A model generated the notes under the pieces. It worked only from the letters and a program-made list of their open reading frames with translations. It was not told the DNA's origin and searched no databases. From NCBI GenBank assembly GCA_036735985.1, contig DAINNH010000001.1, forward strand, positions 103,735 through 167,734: a stretch of DNA of 64,000 nucleotides, written 5' to 3'. Both the position numbers and the translations under genes were made by a program. Of the stretch, positions 33,414 through 48,496 are shown one piece after another (the stretch's first letter is position 1; each line of letters starts with the position of its first letter). Origin of the DNA: Candidatus Alectryobacillus sp. GTDB taxonomy: Bacteria > Bacillota_I > Bacilli_A > RFN20 > CAG-826.

Positions 33414-33430
33414 TTAAACTTATAAAAATA

Positions 33431-33457
33431 AGCTCATCGGAAGATGAGCTTTTTTTA
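33431..33457 (+). terminator. rho-independent terminator after tuf
   Basis: AGCTCATC-ggaa-GATGAGCT followed by T7. Confidence 0.88.
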
Positions 33458-33633
33458 ATTCTTAATCGATAACATATTAATTATTACCAATTATAAATAC
33501 TTGGGGGCATTTGTTAAAATACGATTGCAAAACAACAATATTTGCGAAAAATTTTAATTAATATTACGGACTGAAATATATCACAATATTAATATTATTT
33601 TTAGTATAATATTAATACGCTTAAGGTATAAGA

Positions 33634-34767
33634 ATGGAAGAAAATATTATTAAAGAAGAAAACAATGAGAACAAAGAGTTCTTAATATATCCTTCAAAAC
33701 TATCACGCCGTTTGTTAACTTTTTTAGCTGATGGTTTTTTAGCTTTTATTTTGTGTATTTTTTTATTTGAAATTGTCGTATTGCCATTAGGCAAATTGAG
33801 TGTGAATTATGGCACAAAATATAGCGATTATGTTAACGTAATCAATGAACGATATGATTTTTTGTACTCGAATAATTATTTATTTTATGAAAACGAAAAC
33901 ACAAAATATTCATATAATAGTAATGTTGAATATACTGCTAATGAGTTTATTCATTATTATGCTTTTGATAAAGACGTTTCACTTAAAAAATATGAAATTT
34001 TTGAAAACTATTATGTAAATAAAAAAGGCCTCGATGAAAATACATTTTTACAAAATAAATATAAATACGAAAGTAGTGATTCATTTAAAAAATATTTTGA
34101 AATTGATTTAAAAACTTCACCTTATACAATTCAAATGCGTGAAACTTATCGCAATTTATTTAAACCTTATTTCGAAACCGAAAATGCTATTTCTGATGCT
34201 GGAAAAAAAGAAATGACAACATTTAAATCACAATTTTTCCAAGGAACTTTCTTAGGAATGACAAATGATCTTTATTCGAGCGATAATTACATCATTGGTT
34301 TAAATAATGATATAAATACATTTAAAGATTACCAGAATAATTTGTATATTTATTGTTCATATATTTCTTTTGTATTAGTGGTCATTATTTTGTACTTAAT
34401 TATCCCATTAATTGATAAAAAGGGGCGAACGGTTGGGAAAATAATAATGAAACAAGAGGTTATAAATACAAATACTTTGCAGAACCCTCATATTAATTTA
34501 AAAATATCTCTATTTTTCTTAAATACTTTAGAATCGTTGAGTTTTTTAATGTTTGTTCCTTGGATTAGTGCAGGTTTTTCAACACTATTTTCATTAGTTC
34601 CGCTTTTTTATCCATCCGCTATTGCTCTTCTTTATTGTCTAATTTCCTTTGTAATTGCATGTGCGAATACTTTAAATAAATCTATAAAAGAATTAGTCAC
34701 TTTTACAATGGTAGTAGATTCTTCTTTAATGGACCAGTATTATATCGAAAGAGGTTATAGTGCATAA
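33634..34767 (+). CDS. RDD-family membrane protein with large inserted ectodomain (paralog 1)
   Basis: RDD-like elements are SRRLLTFLADGFL (TM1), then KKGRTVGKIIMKQEV after TM2, with further TMs. About 185 aa of Tyr/Asn-rich sequence sits between TM1 and TM2. Confidence 0.6.
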   Translation: MEENIIKEENNENKEFLIYPSKLSRRLLTFLADGFLAFILCIFLFEIVVLPLGKLSVNYGTKYSDYVNVINERYDFLYSNNYLFYENENTKYSYNSNVEYTANEFIHYYAFDKDVSLKKYEIFENYYVNKKGLDENTFLQNKYKYESSDSFKKYFEIDLKTSPYTIQMRETYRNLFKPYFETENAISDAGKKEMTTFKSQFFQGTFLGMTNDLYSSDNYIIGLNNDINTFKDYQNNLYIYCSYISFVLVVIILYLIIPLIDKKGRTVGKIIMKQEVINTNTLQNPHINLKISLFFLNTLESLSFLMFVPWISAGFSTLFSLVPLFYPSAIALLYCLISFVIACANTLNKSIKELVTFTMVVDSSLMDQYYIERGYSA

Positions 34768-35801
34768 TGATTAAAAGACAAACTGTACCTGTTGAAACAG
34801 TAGCGAATGATGAGATTACGCTAAACAGTGAAACACCTAAAAAAATTCATATTCAATATGAAAGACCCGTTCCTTCAAAAAGGTTGTTTTCTTCGATTTT
34901 AGATTTTTTAGTTTTTGCGTTAATTGCTTCGCTTATTTTTCTTGGAACCCGTGCAATCATGGAAGTTACGCCTAGCTATAAAGCCAACGAGGAAACTTAT
35001 CAAAGCATTCAAGTGAATTCTGGTTTATATCAAAAAAGCACAAACGGGTATTATTATAATATTTTTCACTACTATGAACTCCAAGACAACGATTCTACAT
35101 TTGAAAAGATAAAATTGAGAAATGCAATCGATGCTTTTATTAAATATAGCAATGAACAATCAGACACTCATAAGGTCGATGTTCAAAAAGAATATGATAA
35201 TTATCGAGTTAATCTAAAAGTTGATGGCGTAAATTATTTTATGGTTGAAAACAGTGAAATTAAAGAAGTTAGTGGCATACCATCTTCCAGTTTTAATAAA
35301 AATGCTTATGGGCCATTTATTGAAGAAAAATGCTGTGCAATTTATCTTGTTGAAAATTTTACTCAATTTGTTAATTCCCAAAAAGCCATAACTTACGGAC
35401 TTATTTTTATTGATCTTCCAATTAGTGTCATATTGGCAGCGATTTTATCTTTTTATGTTCCTGGATTGATTTTTAAAAGAGGACGTAAAAGTTTAGGAAA
35501 ATTGTTATTTCACATCTCGCTTGTTGATAAAAACTATTTAAGCTTGCCATTAAAAACTTATACCTATAGATTCTTAATCATTCTTTTTGGAGAAATTATT
35601 TTATCGTTTGCTACATTTGGAGTGCCATTACTTATATCAGCCAGTTTTGAGGCTTTTAGCAAGAAAAAACAACCTATTCACGATTATTTATTAAAAATTG
35701 ATTCGTTAGATACATCAACTGATAAGGTCTATTTTTCGAAACAAGAAATAGCTCACGAACAAGAAAATACTAATAAAACTGTTGATTTTAAACTTCGTTA
35801 A
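34767..35801 (+). CDS. RDD-family membrane protein with inserted ectodomain (paralog 2)
   Basis: KRLFSSILDFLVF (TM1), KRGRKSLGKLLFHISLVD and QPIHDYLL near the C-terminus. The start overlaps the stop of the upstream paralog (ATAATG). Confidence 0.6.
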   Translation: MIKRQTVPVETVANDEITLNSETPKKIHIQYERPVPSKRLFSSILDFLVFALIASLIFLGTRAIMEVTPSYKANEETYQSIQVNSGLYQKSTNGYYYNIFHYYELQDNDSTFEKIKLRNAIDAFIKYSNEQSDTHKVDVQKEYDNYRVNLKVDGVNYFMVENSEIKEVSGIPSSSFNKNAYGPFIEEKCCAIYLVENFTQFVNSQKAITYGLIFIDLPISVILAAILSFYVPGLIFKRGRKSLGKLLFHISLVDKNYLSLPLKTYTYRFLIILFGEIILSFATFGVPLLISASFEAFSKKKQPIHDYLLKIDSLDTSTDKVYFSKQEIAHEQENTNKTVDFKLR

Positions 35802-35832
35802 AAATTTCTTAAATAAAGTCTATTTCTTTTCG

Positions 35833-35862
35833 TTGCTAACAATAATAATTTTAGTATATAAT
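35833..35862 (+). promoter_or_regulatory. sigma-A type promoter heading the ABC/nuclease operon
   Basis: TTGCTA (35833-35838), an 18-nt spacer, then TATAAT (35857-35862). The ATG at 35874 is only 11 nt after the -10 box and has no SD. Confidence 0.6.
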
Positions 35863-35873
35863 ACTAATGTATT

Positions 35874-37439
35874 ATGAAAAAACAAATATTAATTATGCTC
35901 TCAGTTTTGCTTTGCGGAGTGTCTTATTTGTCCACCTCATATTCTGAAACTGCAAAATTTGATAATCGTTCGAACAGCTCAAAGGAGAGTGCAGTTTTAA
36001 AGTATGCAGCGGAAGGTGAAACTGTAAGTCTAGGAACTGAACTTGGTGATGGTGTTCTTTCGATTGCCCTCCGAGCTTCATCCAAAAGTCCGACTTCTCG
36101 TTCTATTCGTTTTCAAGTTACATCAGGAGATAATTTTAATGCGAATGACAACTACACATTAGGTTGTTATGATCCAAAAAATTATTATCCACTAACTGTT
36201 GTTTATAATTTGCTTGATGAAGATGGTAATGTTTATAAAACAAACGCTTCAACAGTTGTCGATCGTGGTGCTACTAGTGGTAATTATGATCCACTTGGCA
36301 ATTATTATGGCGCCGAATACATTGTTTTGTATTTAACTGCTTTTTGTGATTATGGTCTTTCTATTGATACAGAATCAATCAAATTCATCAATATTTTTAA
36401 AGCAAATATTGTGACTGGAGCAGATCAAGTCAAATCGTTTACTCCTGATTTTGAAACTAACTATTATTGTTCTTTTTCAAAAAATAAATCAACGGTTACA
36501 ACGGTCGTTCGTGATCTTGAAAATCTTATTGATTTCAAACAAACACACTTCGTTGAAAGCTCACTCTATTCTGACACATATGCATTAAAATCTACAATTT
36601 TTGCGCATAGTGAAGAAGTTTATGCTGCACGTAAAGCTAGTATTTATAAACAATATAAAGATGGAATTGCTGCAGGGACACATTTAATTCGTGTTCGTTT
36701 TACATGGAATGGCAATTCTCGTTATTTAATTTCTACTGAAAAAGATGGTGTAATAACGAAGCAAACATTAGTTCCGGATGGCAGTTATTTAATCATTAAC
36801 TCTGAGGGGAAAACTGATTTAACAATCTTTGCTAAAAATATTGAAGGCAAAATTGTTGATTTCCAATTAATGAACTTCACAGTTAAATTATCCTTACTTG
36901 TTACTAAGACGTTAAAAGAGGTTTCGACTCTTAGTTCATTTGATGATTATTATGGATCATTAAGTTTCTTAACTAGCGATGTTAAAGATTATAAAGGCAA
37001 TATCGTTTATTCTAAAGTAAATGTTGATGCCTTTAATAACATTAACTTACAAGCTATTCTCGGCTTCACATTAACTACTCTTATTTATGTTGTTGCTGTT
37101 GTTAGTGCTTATTTCTTCCTAAAAAATAAATTTAAGAACGATGAATTCCGTAAGATGAATAAGAGCTCTTATATTAAAAACAGCATTCATGGATACATTT
37201 TTGTTATCGCGTTTGTAATGGACGTTCTTTACATTATGTGGCGTGCTACAACTTACAATAACTCAACAATTGTTGCTAATGCTCTAGATCCAATGATTGT
37301 AGTATTCAGTGTTATTTCAATTATCTGGTTTGGCTACTGGGTTAAATATGCCATGGTTCGAATCAAAGATTGGCGTGAAAAACAACAAGTTGAAAAACTC
37401 AATCTTAATAAAAAAGTCGTTGATGATGGTACTAAATAA
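35874..37439 (+). CDS. orphan surface protein: signal peptide, ~390-aa beta-rich ectodomain, 3 C-terminal TM helices
   Basis: N-terminal MKKQILIMLSVLLCGVSYL is a signal peptide or a relaxed lipobox. The C-terminal hydrophobic segments are ILGFTLTTLIYVVAVVSAYFF, IHGYIFVIAFVMDVLYIMW and MIVVFSVISIIWFGYWV. I recognise no family. Confidence 0.6.
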   Translation: MKKQILIMLSVLLCGVSYLSTSYSETAKFDNRSNSSKESAVLKYAAEGETVSLGTELGDGVLSIALRASSKSPTSRSIRFQVTSGDNFNANDNYTLGCYDPKNYYPLTVVYNLLDEDGNVYKTNASTVVDRGATSGNYDPLGNYYGAEYIVLYLTAFCDYGLSIDTESIKFINIFKANIVTGADQVKSFTPDFETNYYCSFSKNKSTVTTVVRDLENLIDFKQTHFVESSLYSDTYALKSTIFAHSEEVYAARKASIYKQYKDGIAAGTHLIRVRFTWNGNSRYLISTEKDGVITKQTLVPDGSYLIINSEGKTDLTIFAKNIEGKIVDFQLMNFTVKLSLLVTKTLKEVSTLSSFDDYYGSLSFLTSDVKDYKGNIVYSKVNVDAFNNINLQAILGFTLTTLIYVVAVVSAYFFLKNKFKNDEFRKMNKSSYIKNSIHGYIFVIAFVMDVLYIMWRATTYNNSTIVANALDPMIVVFSVISIIWFGYWVKYAMVRIKDWREKQQVEKLNLNKKVVDDGTK

Positions 37440-37459
37440 TTAAATAGTGGAGAAACATT

Positions 37460-39133
37460 ATGGAAATAAGAATTAAAAATTTAACAAAAATTTTCCCAGG
37501 GAATGCAAAAAAGCATATCCGTGATACCGTGGCCGTTGATAACCTCGATATAACGATTCCTGATGGAAAACTCGTTGGTTTATTAGGACCATCGGGCTGT
37601 GGTAAATCGACAACTCTTTATATGATTGCTGGTTTACTTAATCCTACAAGCGGTGAAATTTGGTTTGGTGATGAAGAAGTTACTAATCTTTCCGCCGAAA
37701 AAAGAGGTATTGGTTTAGTTTTCCAAAACTATGCTCTTTACCCACACATGACTATTTATAAGAATGTTGAATTCCCTTTAACTAATCTTAAAGTCGAAGT
37801 CCCACTTGTTAATTTCTTCAATTATGCATTAACTTATACTTATGTTTTAAGTGAAAAAGATGTGGTCGATGGTATTGTTCGTTCCTTTAACTCCTTATGT
37901 TATAAATTAGGTTTTAAGAAATTTAAAGTTGTTCCAACTGTTGTTGGCCAAGATTTAACTCTTCTTATTACTTTATCTAATATTTCAAAAGATGATGAAG
38001 CCAAGCTTAAAACTAATGTTCCAGCTATCATTAAAGCCACATTAACTAACGAGGTAGAAGAACAAAGTAGCGAAGCTTTATTTGATGGTGTTGCTCGTTT
38101 CAAACTTAGCAATACTGATCCAATTAATGAAGATGTTAAAGTTAATGAAGTTGCTTGTAAGAAATATGCTCGTAATGTTAATAACCTTATTCATAGCTTT
38201 GATTTAAGAAGCGTTGAATTAAGTGTTTATGTTAATGAAGGAGCTTTCTATTGCTTCTTTAAAGTTAAAAAGGCTACTGAAGCCCACTTAAATTTACTTA
38301 AAGAAGGCTTAGTTGAAAAATTCGGTGCTCAAGAACTTGATTTCAAAGTCTCACAAGCCTTATCCTATCGTAGATTAAATTCTGTTGAAAGACATGAAAT
38401 CGTTTACGAAACAGCTAAACTTGTTCAAATCGAAGAATATTTACAACGTAAGCCATCACAATTATCTGGTGGTCAACAACAACGTGTCGCGATCGCTCGT
38501 GCTCTTGTTAAACGTCCAAAGGTTTTATTACTTGATGAACCATTAAGTAACCTTGATGCTCGTTTACGTTTACAAACTCGTGAAGAAATCCGTCGTATTC
38601 AAAAGAATACCGGTATTACTACTGTTTTCGTTACTCACGACCAAGAAGAAGCTATGTCAATTTCAGATGAAATTGTCGTCATTAAGCTTGGTGTTATGCA
38701 ACAAAAAGATAAGCCACAAGTCGTTTATAATGACCCAGCCAACTTATTTGTTGCTCAATTCTTAGGAACACCTCCAGTTAACGTGTTTAATGGATATTCT
38801 AAAGATAATAGTATTTATGTTGGCAATTCTAAAGTCTTTGAATGTAAGGAAACTAAACTGCCAGATCAAGATTTATTTGTAGCTATTCGTCCAGAAGGTT
38901 TTGAATTAACTCCAAAGGGTGATTGTGGGTTAGCTTGCAACGCTGAAATGATTCAAATTTTAGGGCGTGATCTTTCGATTATTGCCACAAATGAGAATTG
39001 TTTAAAACCAAACTTCAAAGTTATTATCGCAAATAACGATGATAACATTAAAGGCAAAATTAAATTAGGTGTTAAACCAAACAAATTATATATTTTCGAT
39101 AAGACAACCGAAAAACGTATTTACATTAAATAG
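37460..39133 (+). CDS. MalK/UgpC-type ABC transporter ATP-binding protein with ~200-aa internal insertion
   Basis: Walker A GPSGCGKST, Q-loop VFQNYALYPHMT, signature LSGGQQQRVAIARAL, Walker B LLLDEPLSNLD, H-loop VTHDQ, and a C-terminal TOBE-like domain. About 200 extra residues lie between the Q-loop region and the signature. Confidence 0.88.
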   Translation: MEIRIKNLTKIFPGNAKKHIRDTVAVDNLDITIPDGKLVGLLGPSGCGKSTTLYMIAGLLNPTSGEIWFGDEEVTNLSAEKRGIGLVFQNYALYPHMTIYKNVEFPLTNLKVEVPLVNFFNYALTYTYVLSEKDVVDGIVRSFNSLCYKLGFKKFKVVPTVVGQDLTLLITLSNISKDDEAKLKTNVPAIIKATLTNEVEEQSSEALFDGVARFKLSNTDPINEDVKVNEVACKKYARNVNNLIHSFDLRSVELSVYVNEGAFYCFFKVKKATEAHLNLLKEGLVEKFGAQELDFKVSQALSYRRLNSVERHEIVYETAKLVQIEEYLQRKPSQLSGGQQQRVAIARALVKRPKVLLLDEPLSNLDARLRLQTREEIRRIQKNTGITTVFVTHDQEEAMSISDEIVVIKLGVMQQKDKPQVVYNDPANLFVAQFLGTPPVNVFNGYSKDNSIYVGNSKVFECKETKLPDQDLFVAIRPEGFELTPKGDCGLACNAEMIQILGRDLSIIATNENCLKPNFKVIIANNDDNIKGKIKLGVKPNKLYIFDKTTEKRIYIK

Positions 39134-39145
39134 GGATAATCTTAT

Positions 39146-40240
39146 ATGGAAAATAATGAAAAAAAGGATGGCTTAATAAATAATAGCGGTGGAGTTAGCG
39201 CTACTATTGATAATCCATATGTCTATAACGATACTAAATATGGCGAAGTACAACTTGGCTATAATCCTCAAAAAAATTTAAATGTTCGCCTTGTTTCAAA
39301 TAAGGCTGCCGATCCTAATTTTAAGGTTACAGGCGTTAAAGATGCCGGACAAAGTAATAACTGGAAAGCCTGGTTATATTTAGCTCCAGTCCTCATCCTT
39401 ATGTCAGTTTTCTTAATTTATCCTTTAATTGATACTATCGCTATTTCCTTTATGGATAACTATAGTTATGTTAAGGGTACATTTGATGGCTGGTCTTTCG
39501 CTAACTATGGTAAAGTCTTAGGACTTCTTCCTGTTAATGGAGGCTATCAAAAGAATTTCGTCGACTATGCTATTGGTAACACTTTCTTCTTAGTGTTTGT
39601 TACTGTTCCAATCTCAATTTTTATTGCTATTCTCATCTCAGTCGGTCTAAATAATTTAAAATGGTTCCAAAAAGTATTACAAACCGTTTTCTTCCTTCCA
39701 TATGTTACTAACGCCATTGCTATCGGCATGGTCTTCAGTGTCATCTTCGATCAAAAAGGTTTAATAAACTTTATCTTCCAAACAGATAAACTTTGGATTT
39801 ATGGAGCCCAAAGATGGGATGCAATGCTTCCACTTTGTATTTACATTATTTGGAGTTCGCTCCCATTTAAGATTCTTGTCTTCCTTAGTGGCCTACAAGG
39901 TATTGATAAACAATATTATCAAGCGGCTAAAATTGATGCCACTCCACAATGGAAGGTGTTATTTAAAATTACAATTCCATTATTATCGCCGCAAATCCTT
40001 TATATTATGATTACTTCCTTTATCGGTTCGTTTAAGGAATATTCAAGTATTGTTGGCTTATTCAATGGTCCGGGTACTTCAAATGGTTCTTATGAAATGT
40101 ACACTGTTGTCTACTATGTTTACGATAACATTTCACTTCATACCGAATTAGCTGCGGCCGCTGCCACAATGCTCTTTGTTGTTATTTTACTCTTTACATG
40201 GCTCCAAAGTGTTGTTTCAAAACGCCGTGTTTACTATTAA
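39146..40240 (+). CDS. ABC transporter permease (MalF/UgpA-like) with ~75-aa N-terminal extension
   Basis: EAA loop GIDKQYYQAAKIDATPQWKVLFKITIPLLSP. 6 TMs. Confidence 0.88.
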   Translation: MENNEKKDGLINNSGGVSATIDNPYVYNDTKYGEVQLGYNPQKNLNVRLVSNKAADPNFKVTGVKDAGQSNNWKAWLYLAPVLILMSVFLIYPLIDTIAISFMDNYSYVKGTFDGWSFANYGKVLGLLPVNGGYQKNFVDYAIGNTFFLVFVTVPISIFIAILISVGLNNLKWFQKVLQTVFFLPYVTNAIAIGMVFSVIFDQKGLINFIFQTDKLWIYGAQRWDAMLPLCIYIIWSSLPFKILVFLSGLQGIDKQYYQAAKIDATPQWKVLFKITIPLLSPQILYIMITSFIGSFKEYSSIVGLFNGPGTSNGSYEMYTVVYYVYDNISLHTELAAAAATMLFVVILLFTWLQSVVSKRRVYY

Positions 40241-40255
40241 TAAGGAGGAATGGTT

Positions 40256-41260
40256 ATGTTTGAAAATTTATTTAAGAAAAAACAAGATCCAAATTTGGCC
40301 ACCTATCCTGATTTTACTAAACCAGGTGTCCTTCCTTGTGACGACATTGTAATTACGATTAAAGAAGGTCGAGCTTCTGTTAAGAAACTGCTTGTAAATC
40401 AAAAAATAATGCATGTTCTGTCGACTATTTTACTCTATGTAATTATTGTGGCCTTAGCTTTATTAGTCGTTTTCCCATTCTACTGGATGATTATTACTTC
40501 GTTAAAAACTAACGAAGAAATTATGGCGGGTGACCAAACGTTCTTCCCACGTATCGTTATGTGGACCAACTACGTTTATGTCTTCCAAGTCTTCGATTTT
40601 AAGACTTACATGTGGAATACTATTGTCGTTGCTATTTTCTCGACTTTAGGTACTCTTATCACAACTATCTTCTCCGCTTTTGCTTTCGCTCGTTTAAACT
40701 TTAAGGGCCGTGATCAATTATTTATGGTCTTCTTAATGACAATGATGATTCCAGGCGAAATGATGGTTATTTCTAACTATATTACTGTTGCAAGTTTTGG
40801 CTGGATTGGCAATGATCAAACCTTGATGGATGCTTATTTATCAATGATTGTTCCTTTCTGGGTTAGTGTTTTCTATATTTATTTACTCCGTCAAAACTTT
40901 AAACAAATTCCAAATGAATTATATTTAGCGAGTAAAGTTGATGGCAAATCCGATTGGAATTATCTCTGGAAAGTCATGGTTCCACTTGCTTCTCCAACTC
41001 TTATCTCAATTACTATTTTAAAGTTCATGGGTACTTGGAACTCCTATGTGTGGCCAAACCTTGTCACCCAATATCCGGAATATCGTCTTATTTCCAATGG
41101 TCTTCGTGGCAGTGCCTTCCAAGATCTTGAAGCCGGTGTCGTTTTCCAAGGTTATAAGATGGCGGCAACTGTTATTGTTACTGTTCCACTCTTCCTTCTC
41201 TTCGTTTTCTTTAGAAAATATATTATGAGAGGTGTTGGCAGAGCCGGAATAAAAGGTTAA
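40256..41260 (+). CDS. ABC transporter permease (MalG/UgpE-like)
   Basis: EAA loop IPNELYLASKVDGKSDWNYLWKVMVPLASP. GGAGG ends at 40248, so the ATG at 40256 is preferred over 40250. Confidence 0.88.
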   Translation: MFENLFKKKQDPNLATYPDFTKPGVLPCDDIVITIKEGRASVKKLLVNQKIMHVLSTILLYVIIVALALLVVFPFYWMIITSLKTNEEIMAGDQTFFPRIVMWTNYVYVFQVFDFKTYMWNTIVVAIFSTLGTLITTIFSAFAFARLNFKGRDQLFMVFLMTMMIPGEMMVISNYITVASFGWIGNDQTLMDAYLSMIVPFWVSVFYIYLLRQNFKQIPNELYLASKVDGKSDWNYLWKVMVPLASPTLISITILKFMGTWNSYVWPNLVTQYPEYRLISNGLRGSAFQDLEAGVVFQGYKMAATVIVTVPLFLLFVFFRKYIMRGVGRAGIKG

Positions 41261-41357
41261 AATATATATAGTCTTATTAGTTATTTTAGTTATTATTGCT
41301 TTAATAAAGCAATGTAATAGTCAAGATTGAATTTTTAAATGGAGGAAATTTAAAAAA

Positions 41358-42902
41358 ATGAAATCAAGAAAATATTTATCCCTTCTTGCAGTTCCAATGG
41401 TTTTGGGACTACTTACAGCATGTGGAGAGACAACATCAACTTCAAAAGAACAAACAACTACAAGTCAAACTCCTACAACAACTGAAACCTCTACCGAAGA
41501 GACCTATGTTCCAAAGGTAAAGACAGCTACTACTATTTATTTCTGGAATACTTTAGGTGAACAATTTACTTCAACCATCAATGGTTTTATTGAAGGTTTT
41601 AAGAAACTTGAAACAAATGTCACTGTTGAAGTCGTTAAACAAACTGGTTCTTATAATGATTTAAAAACCAAAGTCGTTAATGGTTTCTCTGTTGATAACT
41701 ATCCAGATTTAGTCCAATGTTATCCAGATCACGTTGCTGAATATATCGACTACGAAAAGGCTCTTAACTTACAACCTTTCATTGATAATGCTGATTATGG
41801 TTGGACAGCCGAAGATAAAGCAGACCTCATTCCTGCTTATTTAGCCGAAGGCCGTGGTTTTGCTAAAGAAGGTACATACGTTGTTCCTTTCCAAAAATCA
41901 ACTGAAGCTATGTTCTATAATGAAGACATTCTTCTTAATACAACTATTGCTCAAGGTATCGTTACCGCTTATGCTTCTTTAGGCAAGGGTGATACATTAA
42001 ATAATGGTAATCCAATTAGTGCTTCATACTTATCTAACCTTACTTGGGAAGAATTATTCAATAAACTTTGCCCAGCTATTGAAGCTTATAACGCCTCTTT
42101 ACCAGAAGCTGAAAAGATTTTAAAGACTGGTGAAGCTTACCATTCAATCTTCGCTTATGATAGTGATGATAACTTATTCATTACCTTAGCTCAACAATAT
42201 GGTTATGGCTATACTTCTGTTGATAAAGTTACTGGTAAAGGTAAAGCTGATTTCAATAATGCTGAAATGAAAGGTCTTGCTGCTACATTTAATGCTGCTG
42301 CTAAGAAAGGTTATATCATTTCGAAAGGTTCAGCTGGCAATAACTATACGAATACTTATTTCACAAAGCAAAATACTTTATTCTCTGTTGGTTCAACTGG
42401 TGGTGTCAGCTATCAATTTAGTAAAGATAACCCAATGAACGTTGGTGTTTCAATTATTCCACACGCTGAAGGCAAAGAAAAAGCTGTTATTTCACAAGGT
42501 CCTGGCTTAACAATGCTTGATCATAATGATGAAAACAGAGCTCTTGCTTCTTGGTTATTCTACAAATACATGGTTAATAAAGAAAATTCATTAACATGGA
42601 TGCTTAACTCTGGCTATCAAGGCATTCGTTTATCGAACTTCACTTCTGAAGAATATCTTGATAAGTGTGATATTTCTTCCAAAGATCCAAAGAGTGCTGA
42701 AAGATTATATGCGAAAGCCTCAACCTATGTTCCAACAACAAGTAATTATTTATTCACATCACCTGTTTTCGTTGGAAGTTCTACTTGCCGTACAGTCGTT
42801 GGCGGTCTTATGACAAAGATCTTAACTCCAACAAACGATATCAAAGATGTCGATACTTGGTTCCAAGATGCTTACGATACAGCCAATATTGCTATTAAGT
42901 AG
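41358..42902 (+). CDS. family-1 (CUT1-type) extracellular solute-binding lipoprotein, paralog 1
   Basis: Lipobox LLTAC followed by a Thr/Ser-rich linker. IYFWNTLGEQ...YPDLVQCYPDHVAEY...VVPFQKSTEAMFYN. Confidence 0.82.
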   Translation: MKSRKYLSLLAVPMVLGLLTACGETTSTSKEQTTTSQTPTTTETSTEETYVPKVKTATTIYFWNTLGEQFTSTINGFIEGFKKLETNVTVEVVKQTGSYNDLKTKVVNGFSVDNYPDLVQCYPDHVAEYIDYEKALNLQPFIDNADYGWTAEDKADLIPAYLAEGRGFAKEGTYVVPFQKSTEAMFYNEDILLNTTIAQGIVTAYASLGKGDTLNNGNPISASYLSNLTWEELFNKLCPAIEAYNASLPEAEKILKTGEAYHSIFAYDSDDNLFITLAQQYGYGYTSVDKVTGKGKADFNNAEMKGLAATFNAAAKKGYIISKGSAGNNYTNTYFTKQNTLFSVGSTGGVSYQFSKDNPMNVGVSIIPHAEGKEKAVISQGPGLTMLDHNDENRALASWLFYKYMVNKENSLTWMLNSGYQGIRLSNFTSEEYLDKCDISSKDPKSAERLYAKASTYVPTTSNYLFTSPVFVGSSTCRTVVGGLMTKILTPTNDIKDVDTWFQDAYDTANIAIK

Positions 42903-42927
42903 TTTGTAGTTTTCTATAATTAAAATG

Positions 42928-42983
42928 GTAGAGGAATCTTTTAAAAGGTTCCTCTACTTGTCGCCTTTAAGGCTTTTTCTTTA
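42928..42983 (+). terminator. strong hairpin / probable terminator after the first binding-protein gene
   Basis: GTAGAGGAATCTT...AAGGTTCCTCTAC is a ~13-bp stem. A small GCCT..AGGC hairpin and TTTTTCTTT follow. Confidence 0.6.
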
Positions 42984-43051
42984 AACGATTTAATATGATT
43001 TTTGATTATAATTGAAAATTCTATCGAAAATATCGTAGAATTTTGACTTAT

Positions 43052-43067
43052 GGTTTAAGCTTAAACC
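43052..43067. promoter_or_regulatory. perfect 16-bp palindrome GGTTTAAGCTTAAACC upstream of second binding-protein gene
   Basis: It is exactly self-complementary. It lies 46 nt before the ATG at 43113 and just after a TTGACT hexamer (43043-43048). Confidence 0.35.
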
Positions 43068-43112
43068 TGTTTAAACTAAACTATCTTATATTTTCTAAGG
43101 GGGAAAATTACA

Positions 43113-44579
43113 ATGAAAAGGAAAGGTTTTATTCCGTTTTGTTTGGGATTGATTGGACTTTTAACTTTAACTTCCTGTGGAGAAACCACTTCGAATGGAT
43201 CAAATACATCTAGTGGCGATGCTAGCAAGAATGTTGAAGTCGTTTTTTGGCACACGATGGGGCAAGGATTAGCAGATACTTTAAACAAAAAGATCGAGGA
43301 ATTTCAAACGCTCGTTAAAAAAAATGAGGGTGTCAATGTCACTGTTAAGGCCATTTATCAAAGTGGTTATGATACAATTTTGTTAAAAATTGCGAATGGT
43401 TATAGTGTTGGCAACACACCAACTTTAGCAGTTGCTTATCCAGATCACGTGGCTGAGTATTTAAATTATGGTGGCGAGAAAGGTGATTTTGTTGTTAATC
43501 TTGATAAATATATTAATAATGAAAAATATACTTTTGGCACCGATGCATATTATGGCGATAATATTAAAGGAACATCTGATTTTATTCAATCCTTTTATAC
43601 TGAAGGCCAAAACTACGCAAAGAGTGGTACTTATTCTTTACCATTCCAAAAATCCACGGAATTAATGTTTTATAACAAAAATATTGTTGAAAAAAAATTA
43701 GCGCCAAAATTTAAAAAAGAAAGTGAAACCGTAAGTGAATTCCTAAATACATTAACTTGGGATGAATTTATGGCGATGAATGCAGAAGTGGCAGCGGATA
43801 TTAAGGGGACGGATCATGTTTATGGTAATTCCTTAAAAGTTCCAGCCGTTTATGATAGTGATGGAAACTTATTTATTACCCAACTTTATCAACGTAATAT
43901 CCCATATCTTGGATATGAAAATGGTAAAGGCAAGGTTTTATTCAATAACGAACAAGCTAAAACTTTTATCAGTGAATTAAAGACTCAATATGATAATGGT
44001 GAAATTTGGACAAAAGGTTCAAATGGTGGCAAATATGGTAGTGATACCTTTAAAAATGTTGAAACCTTATTCTCTATTGGATCTTCCGGTGGCTCAGGCT
44101 ATCAAGATAGCGATTCTTTCCCAGTCGGTGTATGTCCAGTTCCAGCCTATAGCCGTGAACGTGCGAAATACGTTACCCAAGGTATTACTTTAGCTTTATT
44201 TAATAATTTAGGTTTTAGTACTGAAAAGAATGAATTAGCCACTCTTTATGGTTGGAAATTTATGAAATACTTAACTTCAACAACCTGTAATGTCGATATG
44301 ATCTTTGGCTCACAAGGTTATGTTCCAGTTCGTACTTCGGCTTTTGAATCACCAGATTATCAAGAATATCTTGTAAATGAAGGCGAAGATTTAGCCCCAG
44401 CCGGTGCTAAAGTTGTTTACGAAGTTATTAAAGATAACTATATTAATACTCCAGTCTTCAAAGGCTCAGCGGTTGCTCGTAAGCAAGTTGAAGGTATTGT
44501 TACCCAAGTCTTAAATGGTAGTAAAACAGTCGAAAAAGCCTTTGCTGATGCCTATAATGAAGTATTAATTAGCATGTAA
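43113..44579 (+). CDS. family-1 (CUT1-type) extracellular solute-binding lipoprotein, paralog 2
   Basis: Lipobox LTSC followed by a Ser/Thr linker. VVFWHTMGQG...AVAYPDHVAEY...SLPFQKSTELMFYN is clearly paralogous to 41358-42902. Confidence 0.82.
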   Translation: MKRKGFIPFCLGLIGLLTLTSCGETTSNGSNTSSGDASKNVEVVFWHTMGQGLADTLNKKIEEFQTLVKKNEGVNVTVKAIYQSGYDTILLKIANGYSVGNTPTLAVAYPDHVAEYLNYGGEKGDFVVNLDKYINNEKYTFGTDAYYGDNIKGTSDFIQSFYTEGQNYAKSGTYSLPFQKSTELMFYNKNIVEKKLAPKFKKESETVSEFLNTLTWDEFMAMNAEVAADIKGTDHVYGNSLKVPAVYDSDGNLFITQLYQRNIPYLGYENGKGKVLFNNEQAKTFISELKTQYDNGEIWTKGSNGGKYGSDTFKNVETLFSIGSSGGSGYQDSDSFPVGVCPVPAYSRERAKYVTQGITLALFNNLGFSTEKNELATLYGWKFMKYLTSTTCNVDMIFGSQGYVPVRTSAFESPDYQEYLVNEGEDLAPAGAKVVYEVIKDNYINTPVFKGSAVARKQVEGIVTQVLNGSKTVEKAFADAYNEVLISM

Positions 44580-44591
44580 AGAGGTAAATTT

Positions 44592-46148
44592 ATGAAATTA
44601 TCAAAATATTTATTTGTCGTTGTTGCTGCTTTAACTTTTGGAGTGTTAACTTCTTGTAGTAAAACCACTTCAAGTACTGAGACAACTACAACTACAACTA
44701 CATCGAACGATACTGTAGAAACATCTCTTCCAACATGGGTTGATTATGTAAATGACCCAAAAATTCGTTTAGGTGTTGATTATCATAAAGAGGGTTCAGC
44801 CACTGAATCTCGTGATTTTACAGTGGATGGTATCGCTCAAGTTGGTCTTCATATGTGTATTGATGGTGATACGGCGCATTTTACTAACCCATATAATACT
44901 GTTAATGTTAACGGCAATCTATCAAATATTGTTAAAATTCGTTTTTATGGTATTGATACTCCTGAATCAACCGGAAAAATTCAACCTTATGGTAAACAAG
45001 CCTCAGATTATACAAAATCAATCTTAAAAAATGCCGCTAATAACGGAACTATTGTTATTACTGGTACTAATTTTGCATCATATAAGGTTCCAACTTTTGA
45101 TTCGACTGGTACTCGTTATCTTGGTCTTGTTTGGGTTAATGAAACTGTTAAAAATGCGGCTTATAATGATTTAAAATTATTAAATTTACAAATTGTTGAA
45201 TATGGTTATTCCTGGGTTAAATCAACAAGTGATATTCCAGAATTAAGCAGTACTTTTGTTTTAGCTGAAACACAGGCTGAAACTTATAAATTAAAACTTC
45301 ATAGTGGTGAAAAAGATCCTTACTTCAATTATGAAGGTGCCCAAGAAGTTGAAATTTTAAAAATTAAAGAAGCGGTTGTGGATACAATGACTACCGGAGC
45401 AGAGAATGCTTTTAATGGGGCAAATATCAAAGTCTATGGTGTTATTGTTGGCTATGCTAATAATACGTTATATATTCAAAAATATTATTCAGAAGCTAAA
45501 GGCAGTTTAATTAGTGGTGGCGAATATGCTTCGCTTAATATCTTTACTGGTATGTCCACAATTCCTTCTAAATTTCAAAAAATAGGTAATTTACTTTGTC
45601 TTGTTGGCACATTTGAATATACCGAGAACTTTGGTATGCAAGTAAGTGGTGTTGCGATGCCTACTAAACCAGTGGGTGAATCTGATTCCTATATTGTAAC
45701 GGATCAGGCTGAAATTACGGCTCATTTTGAGAAAACGGAACCATACGTTTTTGAAGATACTATGGATAATTTCTCTTCAACAGTTCCATACAATGGAACT
45801 CCAGATTTAAAGTATCTTTATTCGCCTATTAAAGTAACTGATGAATTAGTTTGCACTAAAGTTTATAAATCAGCCTCAAGTGGTGATATTTCTTTAACTG
45901 TTTCGCCAGTTGGCACAACAACTAAAGAAAATCTTGAAATCTATATTTCTTATATTTTCTATCCTGATCAAGAAAATCATCCGGCCCTTCAATGGAAAGA
46001 TGAATCTAATTTCTTAAATCAAACATTTAGAGTTTCTGGTATTTTCAACTGTCGTTATGATTCCGGCACTTCAAAATATTACTACTCTATTACCTGTCGT
46101 CCAAGTCTCACTCCAGAAGATTTAATTTGTACAAGTTACGCTGGATAA
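44592..46148 (+). CDS. staphylococcal-nuclease (SNase/thermonuclease) family lipoprotein with C-terminal beta-rich (OB-like?) extension
   Basis: Lipobox LTSC plus a poly-Thr linker. SNase core CIDGDTAHF...IRFYGIDTPES...QPYGKQASDYTK...GTRYLGLVWV...LQIVEYGYSWV, with the Ca/catalytic positions conserved. Confidence 0.82.
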   Translation: MKLSKYLFVVVAALTFGVLTSCSKTTSSTETTTTTTTSNDTVETSLPTWVDYVNDPKIRLGVDYHKEGSATESRDFTVDGIAQVGLHMCIDGDTAHFTNPYNTVNVNGNLSNIVKIRFYGIDTPESTGKIQPYGKQASDYTKSILKNAANNGTIVITGTNFASYKVPTFDSTGTRYLGLVWVNETVKNAAYNDLKLLNLQIVEYGYSWVKSTSDIPELSSTFVLAETQAETYKLKLHSGEKDPYFNYEGAQEVEILKIKEAVVDTMTTGAENAFNGANIKVYGVIVGYANNTLYIQKYYSEAKGSLISGGEYASLNIFTGMSTIPSKFQKIGNLLCLVGTFEYTENFGMQVSGVAMPTKPVGESDSYIVTDQAEITAHFEKTEPYVFEDTMDNFSSTVPYNGTPDLKYLYSPIKVTDELVCTKVYKSASSGDISLTVSPVGTTTKENLEIYISYIFYPDQENHPALQWKDESNFLNQTFRVSGIFNCRYDSGTSKYYYSITCRPSLTPEDLICTSYAG

Positions 46149-46150
46149 TT

Positions 46151-47392
46151 ATGATGTTAAAAATTAAGAAGGTTTTGCCGTTATTTTTGCTAACAACATT
46201 GCTTTTTTCGTGTGATGTAAATAATAGCGGATCTTCCACCAATGAGACAAGTGATACAAATGCAACTAGCGAAACATCAACTAATGCGACAAGTAGTGCG
46301 AATAGTACTTTGGTCATAAGTGAGAACGAACCTTTTATTTCAGAATTGTTTATTGGCGAAAAATATACTTTATCTTGTATTGAAATAGGAAATTCGACAA
46401 ATGCGTCAATTAGTTTATCTAATTACTCTTTGGCTATCTTTAAATACAGTGATTTATCGATTGAATATAAATTTAGTGATTCTCTTAATGCCAACGGAAC
46501 AATTATTTTAGCAAATAATGCATTGGCGGCGAGTAATTCTAATTATATTGATTTAGGGGCGAATTATATTACTGGGAGCAACTATATTGAGCTTCGTAAA
46601 AATGGCGTTTGCATTGATGCTATTGGCAATAAGGGGTTAAATACCTTTTATCAAACTAATGGTTCAATGATTCGCTTTAAGGAGTATTTTAAATCTTATA
46701 ACAAATATGATCCATTACATTTCTTTCATGTTCGTGGTGGCGTAAGTAAATATTTGGGTAATCTTGATGTTTTAATGAGTGTTACTGAGTATGAAAAGGG
46801 ACCAACTTTATCCTCGTATTATTCGGATAAAGTCTATGGCAGTTCAAGTGTTGTTCCACAAGGTGGCTATCTTAAAGCAACAATTAAGTCACTTGGAGAT
46901 GGAGATACTACTCGTTTTTATTTCCCAGATGGTGATTCGAGTGTAAATAGTTTATCTGCCGTTCGATATTTGTTTATTAATTGTCCAGAAATTTTGCACC
47001 CGGGTGTTGAAGGCTCACGCGATCAGCCATGGGGACAACCTGCTAAAACTTTTAATAATAACAAGCTTAGTAATGCTACAAGCATTCTTGTTCAATCAAA
47101 TAGTGGTTATTCATTAACTGAAACTTATGATCGTATGTTGGGATATGTTTGGTATAGTGATGTTAGCAATCCTAGTTTAAGTGACTATCATTTATTGAAT
47201 TATGAAATGGTTTTAAATGGTTATGCTAACGTTTCGATTGATTCAAAATATGATACAATGTATGGAGTAGGCGACGTTTTATATTACGATTATGTTATGT
47301 ATGCTTACTACAAAGCATTTAATGCTCACATCGGTGTTTGGGGTGAAACAGATCCAACTTACGATTACAGTAATTCGATATATATTGGATAA
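46151..47392 (+). CDS. lipoprotein with LTD-like domain plus SNase-family nuclease domain
   Basis: Lipobox LFSC. The LTD-like segment is ISELFIGEKYTLSCIEIGNSTNASISLSNYSL...ANGTIILAN. The SNase core is GDGDTTRFYF...VRYLFINCPE...QPWGQPAKTF...YDRMLGYVWY...NYEMVLNGYANV. The ATG at 46151 is preferred over the TTG at 46127. Confidence 0.75.
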   Translation: MMLKIKKVLPLFLLTTLLFSCDVNNSGSSTNETSDTNATSETSTNATSSANSTLVISENEPFISELFIGEKYTLSCIEIGNSTNASISLSNYSLAIFKYSDLSIEYKFSDSLNANGTIILANNALAASNSNYIDLGANYITGSNYIELRKNGVCIDAIGNKGLNTFYQTNGSMIRFKEYFKSYNKYDPLHFFHVRGGVSKYLGNLDVLMSVTEYEKGPTLSSYYSDKVYGSSSVVPQGGYLKATIKSLGDGDTTRFYFPDGDSSVNSLSAVRYLFINCPEILHPGVEGSRDQPWGQPAKTFNNNKLSNATSILVQSNSGYSLTETYDRMLGYVWYSDVSNPSLSDYHLLNYEMVLNGYANVSIDSKYDTMYGVGDVLYYDYVMYAYYKAFNAHIGVWGETDPTYDYSNSIYIG

Positions 47393-47404
47393 AAGGAGAA
47401 AAAT

Positions 47405-47875
47405 ATGTTCTGTTCAAATTGTGGCTATGATTTAAAAGAAAGCAAAATTAAATCAATCGAGGCAGAAGCTGCCAAGAAAGATGAATCCATGGAGGGCAAA
47501 AAAGTTTATGTTTGTCCACGTTGTGGAAAAATTATTAGCAATGGTTTTGAGGAAGCGGATTATAAGGCTTTATCTCAAGCTGCTCACGCTGAAGTTCACC
47601 GTGCAAATAATGCCAAAAATGGTGGTCTATGTTCAACCGCTATAGGCTCAATTTTAATCGCCATTTCTATTCTTTTCTTATTCATGTCATTTAAAGCGGC
47701 TAATGCTGGTAAACTCGATCCACATTGTATTGAATTTAGTGTTTTCTGTGTCCTTTGCATAGTTGGCACAGCTTGCTTAGTTGGTGGTTTAATTGTTTTT
47801 TTCATTGGTTTAAGAAGATCGAAAAAATATTCTTTATTAATTACTAATATACAAAACAAAAGTTTTGTGCAATAA
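47405..47875 (+). CDS. zinc-ribbon membrane protein
   Basis: MFCSNCGYDL...VCPRCGKII, then two TM helices. AAGGAG RBS. It starts 12 nt after the nuclease gene. Confidence 0.6.
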   Translation: MFCSNCGYDLKESKIKSIEAEAAKKDESMEGKKVYVCPRCGKIISNGFEEADYKALSQAAHAEVHRANNAKNGGLCSTAIGSILIAISILFLFMSFKAANAGKLDPHCIEFSVFCVLCIVGTACLVGGLIVFFIGLRRSKKYSLLITNIQNKSFVQ

Positions 47876-47914
47876 TATTAGGGCTGGCTGCTTTTTAACT
47901 AAGTAGCTCACCAC

Positions 47915-47990
47915 GGACCCTTAGCTCAGCTGGTAGAGCAACTGACTCTTAATCAGTGGGTCTAGAGTTCGAATCTCTAAGGGTCCACCA
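47915..47990 (+). tRNA. tRNA-Lys (anticodon CUU), CCA encoded
   Basis: Hand-folded cloverleaf. Acceptor GGACCCT/AGGGTCC, D arm GCTC-AGCTGGTA-GAGC, anticodon arm ACTGA-CTCTTAA-TCAGT, T arm TAGAG-TTCGAAT-CTCTA, and a 3' ACCA. Confidence 0.9.
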
Positions 47991-47994
47991 AATT

Positions 47995-48036
47995 AAAAAA
48001 TAAGGTAAGCGAATGCTTACCTTTTTATTTTTTTAT
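47995..48036. terminator. bidirectional terminator after tRNA-Lys / convergent GAF gene
   Basis: AAGGTAAGC-gaat-GCTTACCTT is flanked by an A-run and a T-run. Confidence 0.85.
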
Positions 48037-48046
48037 ATTTCTCAAA

Positions 48047-48496
48047 TTAACAGAATTCGCTTGCTAAAAGAATTTCAAGAATGTCATTTAATAAGCATTC
48101 GTCGTCTTTAGTAAATGCATTAAGTTCGTCGGAATCTATATCTAAAACTCCAATAATAAAAATATCATTGCGCATCGGTAAAACTATTTCACTTTTTACT
48201 GTGTTAGAACAGGAAATATATCCAGCAAATTTTGTAACATCATCGACAATTAATGTTTTTCTTTGACTCATGCATTGCCCACAAACGCCTTTTCCGTTAG
48301 GAATTGTATAGCAAGCCACATCACCTTGAAAAGGTCCTAAATAGAGGCAATCAGAGCCTTTTTCGTATAAATAAAAACCAACCCAGGAAGCTTTGGGCAT
48401 GATTGATTTAATATAAGCAGTAGTGTTGGCTAATTTTGATAAATAATTATCTTGTCCACTAATTAAGTCTTTATAAGCCAATATTTTATCGTTCAT
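48047..48496 (-). CDS. msrC: GAF-domain free methionine-(R)-sulfoxide reductase (YebR/MsrC-like)
   Basis: WVGFYLYE...LYLGPFQGDVACYTIPNGKGVCGQC...SEIVLPM...IGVLDIDS aligns along its whole length with E. coli YebR as I remember it. Confidence 0.8.
   Translation of the reverse strand: MNDKILAYKDLISGQDNYLSKLANTTAYIKSIMPKASWVGFYLYEKGSDCLYLGPFQGDVACYTIPNGKGVCGQCMSQRKTLIVDDVTKFAGYISCSNTVKSEIVLPMRNDIFIIGVLDIDSDELNAFTKDDECLLNDILEILLASEFC

Follow-up and report, generated by a model that had tools for sequence, protein, structure and literature searches.

What is imported by an ATP-binding cassette (ABC) transporter whose genes stand beside those of surface nucleases, and do the further membrane proteins encoded with it form part of the same system? 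The question is raised by a gene cluster of Candidatus Alectryobacillus sp. (GenBank assembly GCA_036735985.1), located within a stretch of 64,000 nucleotides (contig DAINNH010000001.1, positions 103,735 to 167,734, forward strand; hereafter the window, numbered from its first letter). Eleven open reading frames (ORFs) on the forward (+) strand, which also bears the other features given below unless stated, occupy positions 33634-47875, and all eleven same-strand genes listed in an earlier note, made from the sequence alone, were found where it had placed them. They encode two RDD-family membrane proteins (RDD1 and RDD2), a protein with an ectodomain and three transmembrane (TM) helices (ORF3), an ATPase, two permeases (PermA and PermB), two lipoprotein substrate-binding proteins (SBP1 and SBP2), two lipoproteins of the SNase family (NUC1 and NUC2) and a zinc-ribbon membrane protein (ZnR). 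What the SNase-linked transporters of mollicutes carry has been debated since at least 2007, with nucleotides and sn-glycerol-3-phosphate (G3P) both proposed. For the cluster described here, the import of nucleic-acid fragments at the cell surface is considered moderately probable.

Relatives of the cluster were found by using the ATPase to scan a single genome from each GTDB species, which yielded 80 loci, onto which the window proteins were mapped; components were counted with family profiles, and the number of informative loci differs per component (57, 54 or 68, and 43 for loci with a full flank). All 80 loci derive from metagenome-assembled genomes of uncultured gut, rumen or faecal Bacilli, among which the genera Candidatus Onthovivens, Enterosoma, Alectryobacillus and Alloenteromonas are named, and ATPase identity across the relatives is 45-64 %. 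Alectryobacillus and Enterosoma are placed in the GTDB order RFN20 (families CAG-826 and CAG-288); both families are predicted to lack peptidoglycan and combine small genomes with a minimal metabolism, and a published reconstruction gives RFN20 and the Mycoplasmatales a common ancestral node. The order RDD1-RDD2-ORF3-ATPase-PermA-PermB-SBP1-SBP2-NUC1-(NUC2)-ZnR is retained in nearly every locus. Both permeases are present in 57/57 informative loci, as is ZnR, which is always the last gene of the cluster, and two SBPs are encoded in 56/57. ORF3 is the gene immediately before the ATPase in 67/68 loci. One or more RDD genes precede the ATPase in 52/54 loci, and 48/54 loci have at least two there. 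The linkage of at least one SNase to the transporter is universal (57/57 loci; median gap between SBP2 and NUC1 of 14 nt), which is the co-conservation that the earlier note had proposed as a check on its idea of a machine for the capture, degradation and import of nucleic acids. Its description of the locus as a much expanded version of the nuclease-transporter arrangement of mycoplasmas holds for the binding proteins, two of which are the rule, but not for the nucleases, as two SNases are the exception (10/57).

The transporter core has the composition of a CUT1-type importer (TC 3.A.1.1), with two EAA-loop permeases, SBPs of the cluster-D type and a MalK/UgpC-like ATPase that bears a regulatory domain at its C-terminus. 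The permeases are of the MalF/UgpA type (PermA, 39146-40240; BPD_transp_1, 81 bits) and the MalG/UgpE type (PermB, 40250-41260; BPD_transp_1, 62 bits), and the EAA loops reported in the earlier note are present in both translations. The NCBIfam matches of PermB are sub-threshold, with GlcU the best, followed by UgpE. The best NCBIfam match of the ATPase (37460-39133) is UgpC, at 330 bits against a cut-off of 432, and its alignment to UgpC/MalK runs to the C-terminus.

Both NUC1 (44592-46148) and NUC2 (46154-47392) exceed the Pfam SNase (PF00565) cut-off of 21 bits (37.2 and 37.4 bits, respectively), and lipoboxes (LTAC, LTSC, LTSC and LFSC) are readable in the four translations of the binding proteins and nucleases, in agreement with their earlier description as lipoproteins. 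In SNase, D21, D40 and T41 are Ca2+ ligands, and R35, E43 and R87 are catalytic. NUC1 has an intact active site, with the equivalents of D19, D21, T22, R35, T41, P42, E43 and R87 invariant in 64 orthologues and that of D40 kept in 63/64; it further carries a C-terminal extension of ~280 residues. The two nucleases have only the SNase core in common. In NUC2 the metal ligand D40 is replaced by Asn in 11/13 orthologues with the other catalytic residues kept, and residues 276-277 of the window protein are Asn at the D40 position and Cys in place of T41; NUC2 is possibly a weakened enzyme or a nucleic-acid-holding protein. The LTD assignment of its N-terminal region, suggested previously, fell short of the Pfam cut-off (PF00932; 25.9 against 34.3 bits), and the homologue in locus L091 likewise gives only a weak LTD match. 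The most likely start of NUC2 is the ATG at 46154, as in the gene call of the JGI metagenome from which the window derives, rather than the TTG at 46127.

SBP1 (41358-42902; Pfam SBP_bac_8 and SBP_bac_1) and SBP2 (43113-44579; SBP_bac_8) are indeed paralogous family-1 binding lipoproteins (32 % identity). Profiles were built for each from 31 orthologues (31 species). The closest solved relatives of the SBP1 profile, which belongs to a UgpB-like branch, are Escherichia coli UgpB (3e-21) and the PDB 7c0x series (1.6e-20), and that of the SBP2 profile is the 7c0x/7c0f series (7c0x-7c1b; 8e-22). Mycobacterium tuberculosis UgpB is also among the closest solved relatives, while neutral-sugar binders are at least ten orders of magnitude worse against both profiles. 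UgpB, the M. tuberculosis glycerophosphocholine (GPC) binder and a Thermus binder of uridylyl-3'-5'-phosphoguanosine (U3G) form one CUT1 branch, in which two Tyr and two Ser residues coordinating the phosphate (Tyr64, Ser143, Ser266 and Tyr342 as numbered there) are strictly conserved, which is not the case in glucose binders (PMC12718374). Mapped through the equivalent residues of the 4aq4 chain (Y46/S125/S251/Y327), this tetrad corresponds to Y99, S181, S346 and Y420 in SBP1 and to Y86, S181, S324 and Y403 in SBP2. All are invariant columns across the 31 species, with the third position shifted by one residue in the 7c0x alignments.

A Trp pair that forms a clamp (Trp188/191) is particular to the binders of G1P and G3P (PMC12718374). 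The motif WxxW, with the spacing of the UgpB clamp, is absent from the consensus of both SBP families, the region of the clamp being left unaligned to UgpB by HMMER. At the position of the UgpB Glu residue that contacts the glycerol hydroxyl, the SBPs have the Pro of an invariant YPD motif, and an invariant YDSDxNLFI motif occurs in both families between the two Ser residues of the tetrad, in a stretch that HMMER left unaligned to UgpB. The earlier note had considered that the pocket residues might match those of characterised sugar binders; instead, a tetrad reported absent from glucose binders is invariant and WxxW is lacking. Given the retained tetrad, the absence of WxxW, the Pro at the Glu position and the YDSDxNLFI motif, the ligand is very probably, as judged from these sequences, a phosphate ester other than G3P.

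Besides a mycoplasma lipoprotein family, the NCBIfam relatives of the SBPs amount essentially to UgpB (NF008211), which scores 24-50 bits where the cut-off is 411. The NCBIfam family lipo_P68 ("P68 family surface lipoprotein"), with partial and sub-threshold matches, was considered as a bridge to the mycoplasma operon and set aside. P68 is mhp390, and as a review on Mycoplasma hyopneumoniae describes mhp390 as a surface adhesin and pro-apoptotic lipoprotein and describes no link with the mhp379 nuclease locus, this match was not used as evidence.

A variable slot occurs in relatives of the cluster, either in the tuf-RDD1 interval or in the one that separates RDD2 from ORF3 (for example L029:4552-5670, L074:4370-5521, L077:2301-3500, L024:5995-7494, L073:6021-7547 and L016:2054-3577). 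Its content includes Y_phosphatase3 (10 loci), extra RDD genes (10 loci), SIR2_2 (8 loci), ZIP transporters (5 loci), Endonuclease I with Big_2 (4 loci) and Metallophos with 5'-nucleotidase-C (3 loci). Further phosphoesterases (Metallophos with 5_nucleotid_C) are encoded in L006 and L007, and extra SNase genes in L057 and L074. GlpQ was not found in the window cluster and did not rank among the 25 Pfam families that occur most often in the variable flanks. Neither the cluster nor the variable genes that recur beside it in the ~80 loci were found to include a glycoside hydrolase or a sugar-catabolic gene.

On the basis of the phosphate signature of the SBPs, these variable genes and the universal nuclease linkage, nucleic-acid fragments (3'-nucleotides, dinucleotides and short oligonucleotides) are favoured as cargo, where the step from phosphate ester to nucleotide would follow from gene context. 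SNase-type enzymes release 3'-phosphorylated mono- and dinucleotides. In the proposed system, NUC1 would cleave extracellular DNA or RNA, with NUC2, despite its altered metal site, also acting in the window genome. The anciently duplicated SBP1 and SBP2 would each have a specificity of its own in capturing nucleotides or short oligonucleotides, and the MalFG-type permease pair, powered by the MalK/UgpC-type ATPase, would import the captured fragments. RDD1, RDD2, ORF3 and ZnR may constitute accessory membrane subunits or regulators that are constant in this transporter type, physically coupled to it, with an insertion in the ATPase as the likely cytoplasmic docking or regulatory module for them. 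The capture-degrade-import idea of the earlier note is thereby borne out as far as the SNase linkage, the invariant active-site residues, the phosphate tetrad and the extra nucleases and phosphoesterases of relatives extend.

Several points weigh against this interpretation. Every locus was picked through the ATPase, and the counts therefore describe ATPase-bearing loci. The matches of the SBPs and ATPase to named NCBIfam families are all below the curated cut-offs, and the phosphate tetrad fits glycerophosphodiesters equally well as nucleotides. The assignment of the PDB entries 7c0f-7c1b to the Thermus thermophilus dinucleotide-binding protein is presumptive, drawing on a citation in PMC12718374. 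The likeness to the mycoplasma operons is one of gene content, and the counterpart in Mycoplasma pneumoniae is annotated as a G3P transporter, with a glycerol-growth phenotype in the mutant of its nuclease lipoprotein. Conserved neighbourhood does not prove that the RDD, ORF3 and ZnR proteins are subunits, and the RDD pair is relocated downstream in one locus (L021) and inverted in three (L060, L066 and L069). A Foldseek search with the structural model of ORF3 retrieved generic Ig/FnIII sandwiches only (TM-scores of 0.1-0.2), and no function is drawn from that model for this reason.

The last of these points bear on the alternative that survives best, which accepts the transporter-nuclease core as proposed and regards the RDD pair, ORF3 and ZnR as independent membrane proteins kept in place by synteny inertia in small genomes. 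We consider this somewhat unlikely. Besides the relocated and inverted RDD pairs, it is favoured by the large gap between RDD2 and ORF3 (median 148 nt), by the fast evolution of the ORF3 ectodomain (~25 % identity), which resembles that of a generic surface antigen, and by the statement in papers of 2025-26 that the role of RDD domains is unknown. The remaining gene arrangement argues against it, as ORF3 is separated from the ATPase by a median of only 17 nt and ZnR keeps its terminal position in all informative loci, and so do the ATPase insertion and a set of paralogous systems without ORF3.

In canonical MalK-type ATPases the Q-loop and the LSGGQ signature lie about 50 residues apart, whereas this distance is 247 residues in the window protein and a median of 326 residues in its relatives. 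The window ATPase thus has an insertion of ~190 residues, close to the ~200 residues of the earlier note, which lies in the helical subdomain at about residues 112-300; the ABC_tran match falls into two stretches. In most relatives the insertion comprises about 270 residues and about three alpha/beta modules, of which the window version lacks the middle one. A profile search with the insertion matched 15 proteins, listed without organism names, and none of them could be recognised as mycoplasmal. Paralogous systems that lack ORF3 occur in L018, L037, L046 and L088-L090 (L018:2-7445, L037:1889-7404 on the reverse strand, L046:7652-17017 and L088:5880-11362), and often adjoin or diverge from the main cluster. 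In these the ATPase comes immediately after the RDD pair and is followed by two permeases. L018 and L046 have an SBP and ZnR further on, with ZnR closing the system in L018, and a nuclease was seen only in L046. The insertion measures ~190-275 residues in ATPases that accompany ORF3 and ~110-145 residues in those that do not. By their sequence distribution, the RDD pair and ZnR appear to belong to the transporter type as a whole, while ORF3 and the long insertion appear to go together, and ORF3 may dock on the insertion.

ORF3 (35874-37439; 521 residues) has no match to a Pfam or NCBIfam family. An exhaustive HMMER search recovered 242 ORF3 representatives among 1.84 billion (1.84e9) proteins, 199 of them below 1e-30, and the family is small, sharply bounded and restricted to a lineage. 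With this family and its conserved place before the ATPase, the protein can no longer be described as an orphan, as it had been. A word-indexed search returned three homologues, and the same three when an alignment of 24 ORF3 sequences was used; such searches badly under-report AT-rich, fast-evolving families of this kind. The ORF3 proteins have a signal or anchor at the N-terminus, an ectodomain of the beta-sandwich type and, at the C-terminus, a conserved module of three TM helices. The module is arranged as TM1, a predicted cytoplasmic loop with the motif KNKYKNDEF(R)R, TM2, a loop with the motif NSxxVxNPxD, TM3 and a tail, also predicted to be cytoplasmic, that ends in KLxL..DDGT. This membrane module and the predicted cytoplasmic motifs flanking it are the best-kept parts of the protein. 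An AlphaFold (AF2) model built on a 60-sequence alignment (pLDDT 87.9, pTM 0.79; pLDDT 42 with a three-sequence alignment) places beta-sandwich domains on three long helices. Many ORF3 homologues are longer, at 650-1000 residues (L006:3961-5982, L021:2343-3839 and L032:8443-9978), and their extra N-terminal region contains IPxSVxxIxxxAF-type repeats that resemble BspA-type leucine-rich repeats.

RDD1 (33634-34767) and RDD2 (34767-35801), the start of which overlaps the RDD1 stop codon, both exceed the cut-off of 24.1 bits for Pfam RDD (PF06271), at 26.9 and 44.8 bits respectively, which agrees with their earlier description as split RDD-family membrane proteins. The match takes in only the C-terminal two-thirds of the profile, as the domain is split by a loop of ~180 residues; in RDD1 this loop lies between TM1 and TM2, on a side of the membrane that can be assigned only tentatively. 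Three or four tandem RDD-like genes replace the pair in some genomes (L008-L010:3400-7750 and L091:1397-5743), and the split-RDD family thus appears to be expanding locally. In the zinc-ribbon protein (ZnR, 47405-47875), also identified in the earlier note, the N-terminal ribbon has four Cys residues (C3, C6, C37 and C40) that do not vary among 63 orthologues, and the C-terminal hydrophobic region corresponds to approximately two TM helices. A thin precedent for an RDD protein as a transporter partner is provided by the mycobacterial Mce1 importer, which is accompanied by the RDD-domain protein Mam1B. Mam1B/Mas1B of the Mce importers resemble the present RDD proteins in that their genes stand with those of an ABC-type importer, of which the RDD-domain membrane protein is a presumed companion. 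The Mce importers however represent a different transporter class (Mce/MlaE-type lipid importers) with a single RDD protein that includes a Mas domain, and the likeness is one of domain and context rather than of sequence comparison.

A more specific proposal can be formulated from these features, in which the RDD pair, ORF3 and ZnR would be stoichiometric subunits of an undescribed class of multi-subunit, CUT1-derived importers, found to date only in these uncultured gut and rumen Bacilli (RFN20 where named). The ORF3 ectodomain would serve as an extracellular dock for the lipoprotein SBPs and nucleases, in a role like that of the MalF P2 loop, the KNKYKNDEF and DDGT motifs would engage the 110-275-residue ATPase insertion, and phosphorylated nucleic-acid fragments (3'-nucleotides and dinucleotides) would be the cargo. 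We regard this proposal, taken as a whole, as rather doubtful. If it is true, the cluster would be the first ABC importer to be defined for (oligo)nucleotides and would place the RDD domain in a mechanistic context for the first time.

A different substrate is assumed by the alternative of a Ugp-type importer of G3P or glycerophosphodiesters, such as GPC from host or dietary lipids, in which the SNase lipoproteins act as general phosphodiesterases or are mere neighbours. The phosphate tetrad is common to G3P and GPC binders (PMC12718374), the best NCBIfam matches include UgpC, UgpA, UgpE and UgpB, the E. coli and M. tuberculosis UgpB proteins are among the closest solved relatives, and MPN134-136 of M. 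pneumoniae are drawn as a putative G3P transporter, with MPN133 mutants growing poorly on glycerol. The cluster also has the CUT1 architecture of the E. coli G3P importer UgpB-AEC2, which together with M. tuberculosis UgpB provides the best NCBIfam and solved-structure relatives of its ATPase and SBPs. The scores nevertheless lie far under the equivalog cut-offs for UgpC and UgpB cited above, and the window SBPs differ from UgpB in being 70-100 residues longer and in possessing the invariant YDSDxNLFI motif, as well as in the missing WxxW clamp and the Pro at the glycerol-binding Glu. The ATPase insertion of 190-275 residues is a further difference from Ugp, and nucleases, rather than a glycerophosphodiesterase, are linked to the transporter. 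The absence of GlpQ from the cluster and from the recurrent flanking families, the recurrence of nucleases and nucleotide phosphoesterases in the flanks, and the constant linkage of an SNase with an invariant active site all argue in the same direction, and a Ugp-type function is thus unlikely.

An ordinary CUT1 importer of sugars or oligosaccharides (MalK/MsmX-type) with functionally unrelated nuclease neighbours is very improbable. It would be compatible with the SBP_bac_1/8 and BPD_transp_1 matches, which are generic CUT1 signatures, with the source label "multiple sugar transport system ATP-binding protein" on one homologous ATPase, and with the modelling of Mycoplasma agalactiae MAG_5030 as a sugar binder (PMC3585158). 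Phosphate-ester binders however lead the solved relatives of the SBPs, far ahead of those for neutral sugars, the tetrad reported absent from glucose binders (PMC12718374) is invariant, and genes for glycoside hydrolysis or sugar catabolism are missing from the cluster and from the recurrent flanks of ~80 loci.

A horizontally acquired island integrated between tuf and tRNA-Lys is scarcely credible, for although the block is flanked by two terminators, ends at a tRNA gene and includes AT-rich RDD genes (GC content of 0.26-0.30), its order is the same in ~80 species-level genomes in spite of an ATPase identity of only 45-64 %, fusA-tuf lies upstream in many of these, its composition is normal for the window, no integrase or recombinase and no repeat of the tRNA 3' end was found, and tRNA-Lys does not adjoin the cluster in relatives. 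The tuf gene is encoded upstream on the same strand, at a distance of at most 10 kb, in 26/43 loci with a full flank, the cluster lying downstream of fusA-tuf. The GC content of the cluster is 0.329 and that at third codon positions (GC3) 0.237, compared with 0.343 +/- 0.046 and 0.228 +/- 0.039 for the other genes of the window, and only fusA and tuf are richer in GC than the cluster. The greater AT-richness relative to flanking core genes noted earlier is thus within the normal spread of the window. The genes downstream of the cluster encode GAF, Crp-like and SBP proteins rather than an integrase or recombinase, and the 3' end of tRNA-Lys has no second copy in the window. The tRNA-Lys(CTT) gene (47915-47990; ARAGORN and Rfam), a neighbour outside the system, does follow the cluster here as the earlier note had it, but this adjacency is found in 0/37 relatives, the nearest example lying ~2.3 kb downstream (L074). 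Given the conserved order, the fusA-tuf context, the composition, the lack of an integrase or tRNA repeat and the inconstant tRNA, the position after tuf reflects ancestral synteny and not the insertion once suggested. The region has been inherited vertically and probably represents a core operon, or else a pair of neighbouring transcription units.

The model of binding, degradation and import is itself not new, having been proposed earlier for mycoplasmas. These have a conserved operon for an SNase lipoprotein, a lipoprotein SBP (P80/MslA) and a CUT1-like ABC transporter, which is co-transcribed in M. agalactiae; the lipoprotein is modelled to bind nucleic acid, the nuclease to degrade it and the transporter to import the products (PMC3585158, PMC4045577). 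Members of this group include M. agalactiae MAG_5030-5070, M. bovis MBOVPG45_0307-0311, the M. gallisepticum mslA locus, the M. hyopneumoniae mhp379 locus, M. pneumoniae MPN133-136 and M. genitalium MG186-189. As in the present cluster, the co-oriented genes are those of an SNase-family surface lipoprotein, an SBP that is likewise a lipoprotein, two CUT1-type permeases and an ATPase of the MalK/UgpC type, in hosts whose lineage descends from the ancestral node in common with RFN20. The gene order SBP-nuclease-ATPase-permeases of the mycoplasmas contrasts with the order ATPase-permeases-SBP-SBP-nuclease observed here, and nothing conserved has been reported downstream of the mycoplasma transporter (PMC3585158), whereas the present cluster has two conserved paralogous SBPs and a constant RDD pair, ORF3 and ZnR. 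For the mycoplasma transporter, the nucleotide model coexists with the G3P drawing and glycerol phenotype of M. pneumoniae. MG187 and MPN134 presumably also carry a long insertion, in which case the split ABC_tran domain is probably common to them and the window ATPase.

Among the characterised binders, the Thermus U3G-binding protein belongs to the same phosphate-binding CUT1 branch as the present SBPs (PMC12718374), with only ~25-30 % similarity over parts of the protein. Its dinucleotide ligand is the kind of product that an SNase releases. This T. thermophilus protein, an SBP of an ABC transporter, was reportedly described by Chandravanshi et al. in 2021 (cited in PMC12718374). If the PDB entries 7c0f-7c1b belong to it, it heads the solved relatives of SBP2 (8e-22) and ranks close to the first for SBP1. 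It is not known to be linked to nucleases. The BMP-family nucleoside importers of mollicutes (P48/Rns-type) were considered as a further counterpart and rejected, as P48 belongs to a different, BMP-type transporter according to a 2025 paper. They resemble the present system in that the ABC importer of a wall-less bacterium receives nucleic-acid precursors from a lipoprotein SBP at the cell surface, but their SBP family is unrelated (BMP rather than CUT1/UgpB-like), unphosphorylated nucleosides are bound and no nuclease is linked.

What is new in the present cluster is the constant partner set, the ORF3 family and the combination of a phosphate tetrad with no Trp clamp. In the papers searched, no description was found of an ABC importer that is constantly associated with a pair of RDD proteins, a beta-sandwich/3-TM family, a zinc-ribbon membrane protein and an insertion-bearing ATPase. 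With ~80 orthologous clusters that retain the tetrad but lack WxxW, the substrate question becomes one of a direct binding experiment with clear candidate ligands. The partner set may also define a new set of accessory subunits and provide a first functional context for RDD domains. The RFN20 bacteria are uncultured and have been seen only in sequence surveys of gut and rumen, and for organisms with such small genomes and minimal metabolism a nucleic-acid harvesting system encoded beside fusA-tuf would be central to their lifestyle.

The unit is bounded upstream by the terminator-like hairpin of tuf (33430-33451; a 9-bp stem followed by a T-run) and downstream by a bidirectional terminator-like hairpin after tRNA-Lys (48002-48023; hairpin scan), in accordance with the two terminators of the earlier note, and no terminator-like site as strong as these was found between 33451 and 48002. 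The intergenic gaps likewise match those given previously and are mostly 5-20 nt around the nucleases and transporter core. Median gaps in the relatives are -4 nt (RDD1-RDD2), 11 nt (ATPase-PermA), 12 nt (PermA-PermB), 56 nt (PermB-SBP1), 41 nt (SBP1-SBP2) and 18 nt (NUC1-ZnR), in addition to those given above, and RDD2-ORF3 is the widest junction among them. This is compatible with a separate transcription start before ORF3, and the gap pattern would fit two transcription units, one comprising RDD1-RDD2 and the other ORF3 through ZnR. The promoter proposed earlier for ORF3 (TTGCTA-18-TATAAT) is present as a pattern match at 35833-35862, but promoter-like sites are not enriched in the region (68, compared with 68.2 in shuffled sequences) and it thus carries no evidential weight.

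A 14-bp hairpin (42927-42958) follows the SBP1 stop codon within a 210-nt gap (42903-43112) that is particular to the window genome. The surrounding 76-nt stretch (42915-42990) folds at -24 kcal/mol (z = -4.6), and a promoter-like site lies downstream at 43012-43041. The hairpin could be a partial terminator or an mRNA stabiliser that raises SBP1 over the later genes. An Rfam scan of 33300-48200 (E <= 1) detected no riboswitch or leader RNA, the sole match being the tRNA. Directly past the downstream terminator, a GAF-domain protein and a Crp/Fnr-type regulator that binds cyclic nucleotides (cNMP) are encoded convergently on the reverse strand (48047-49113).

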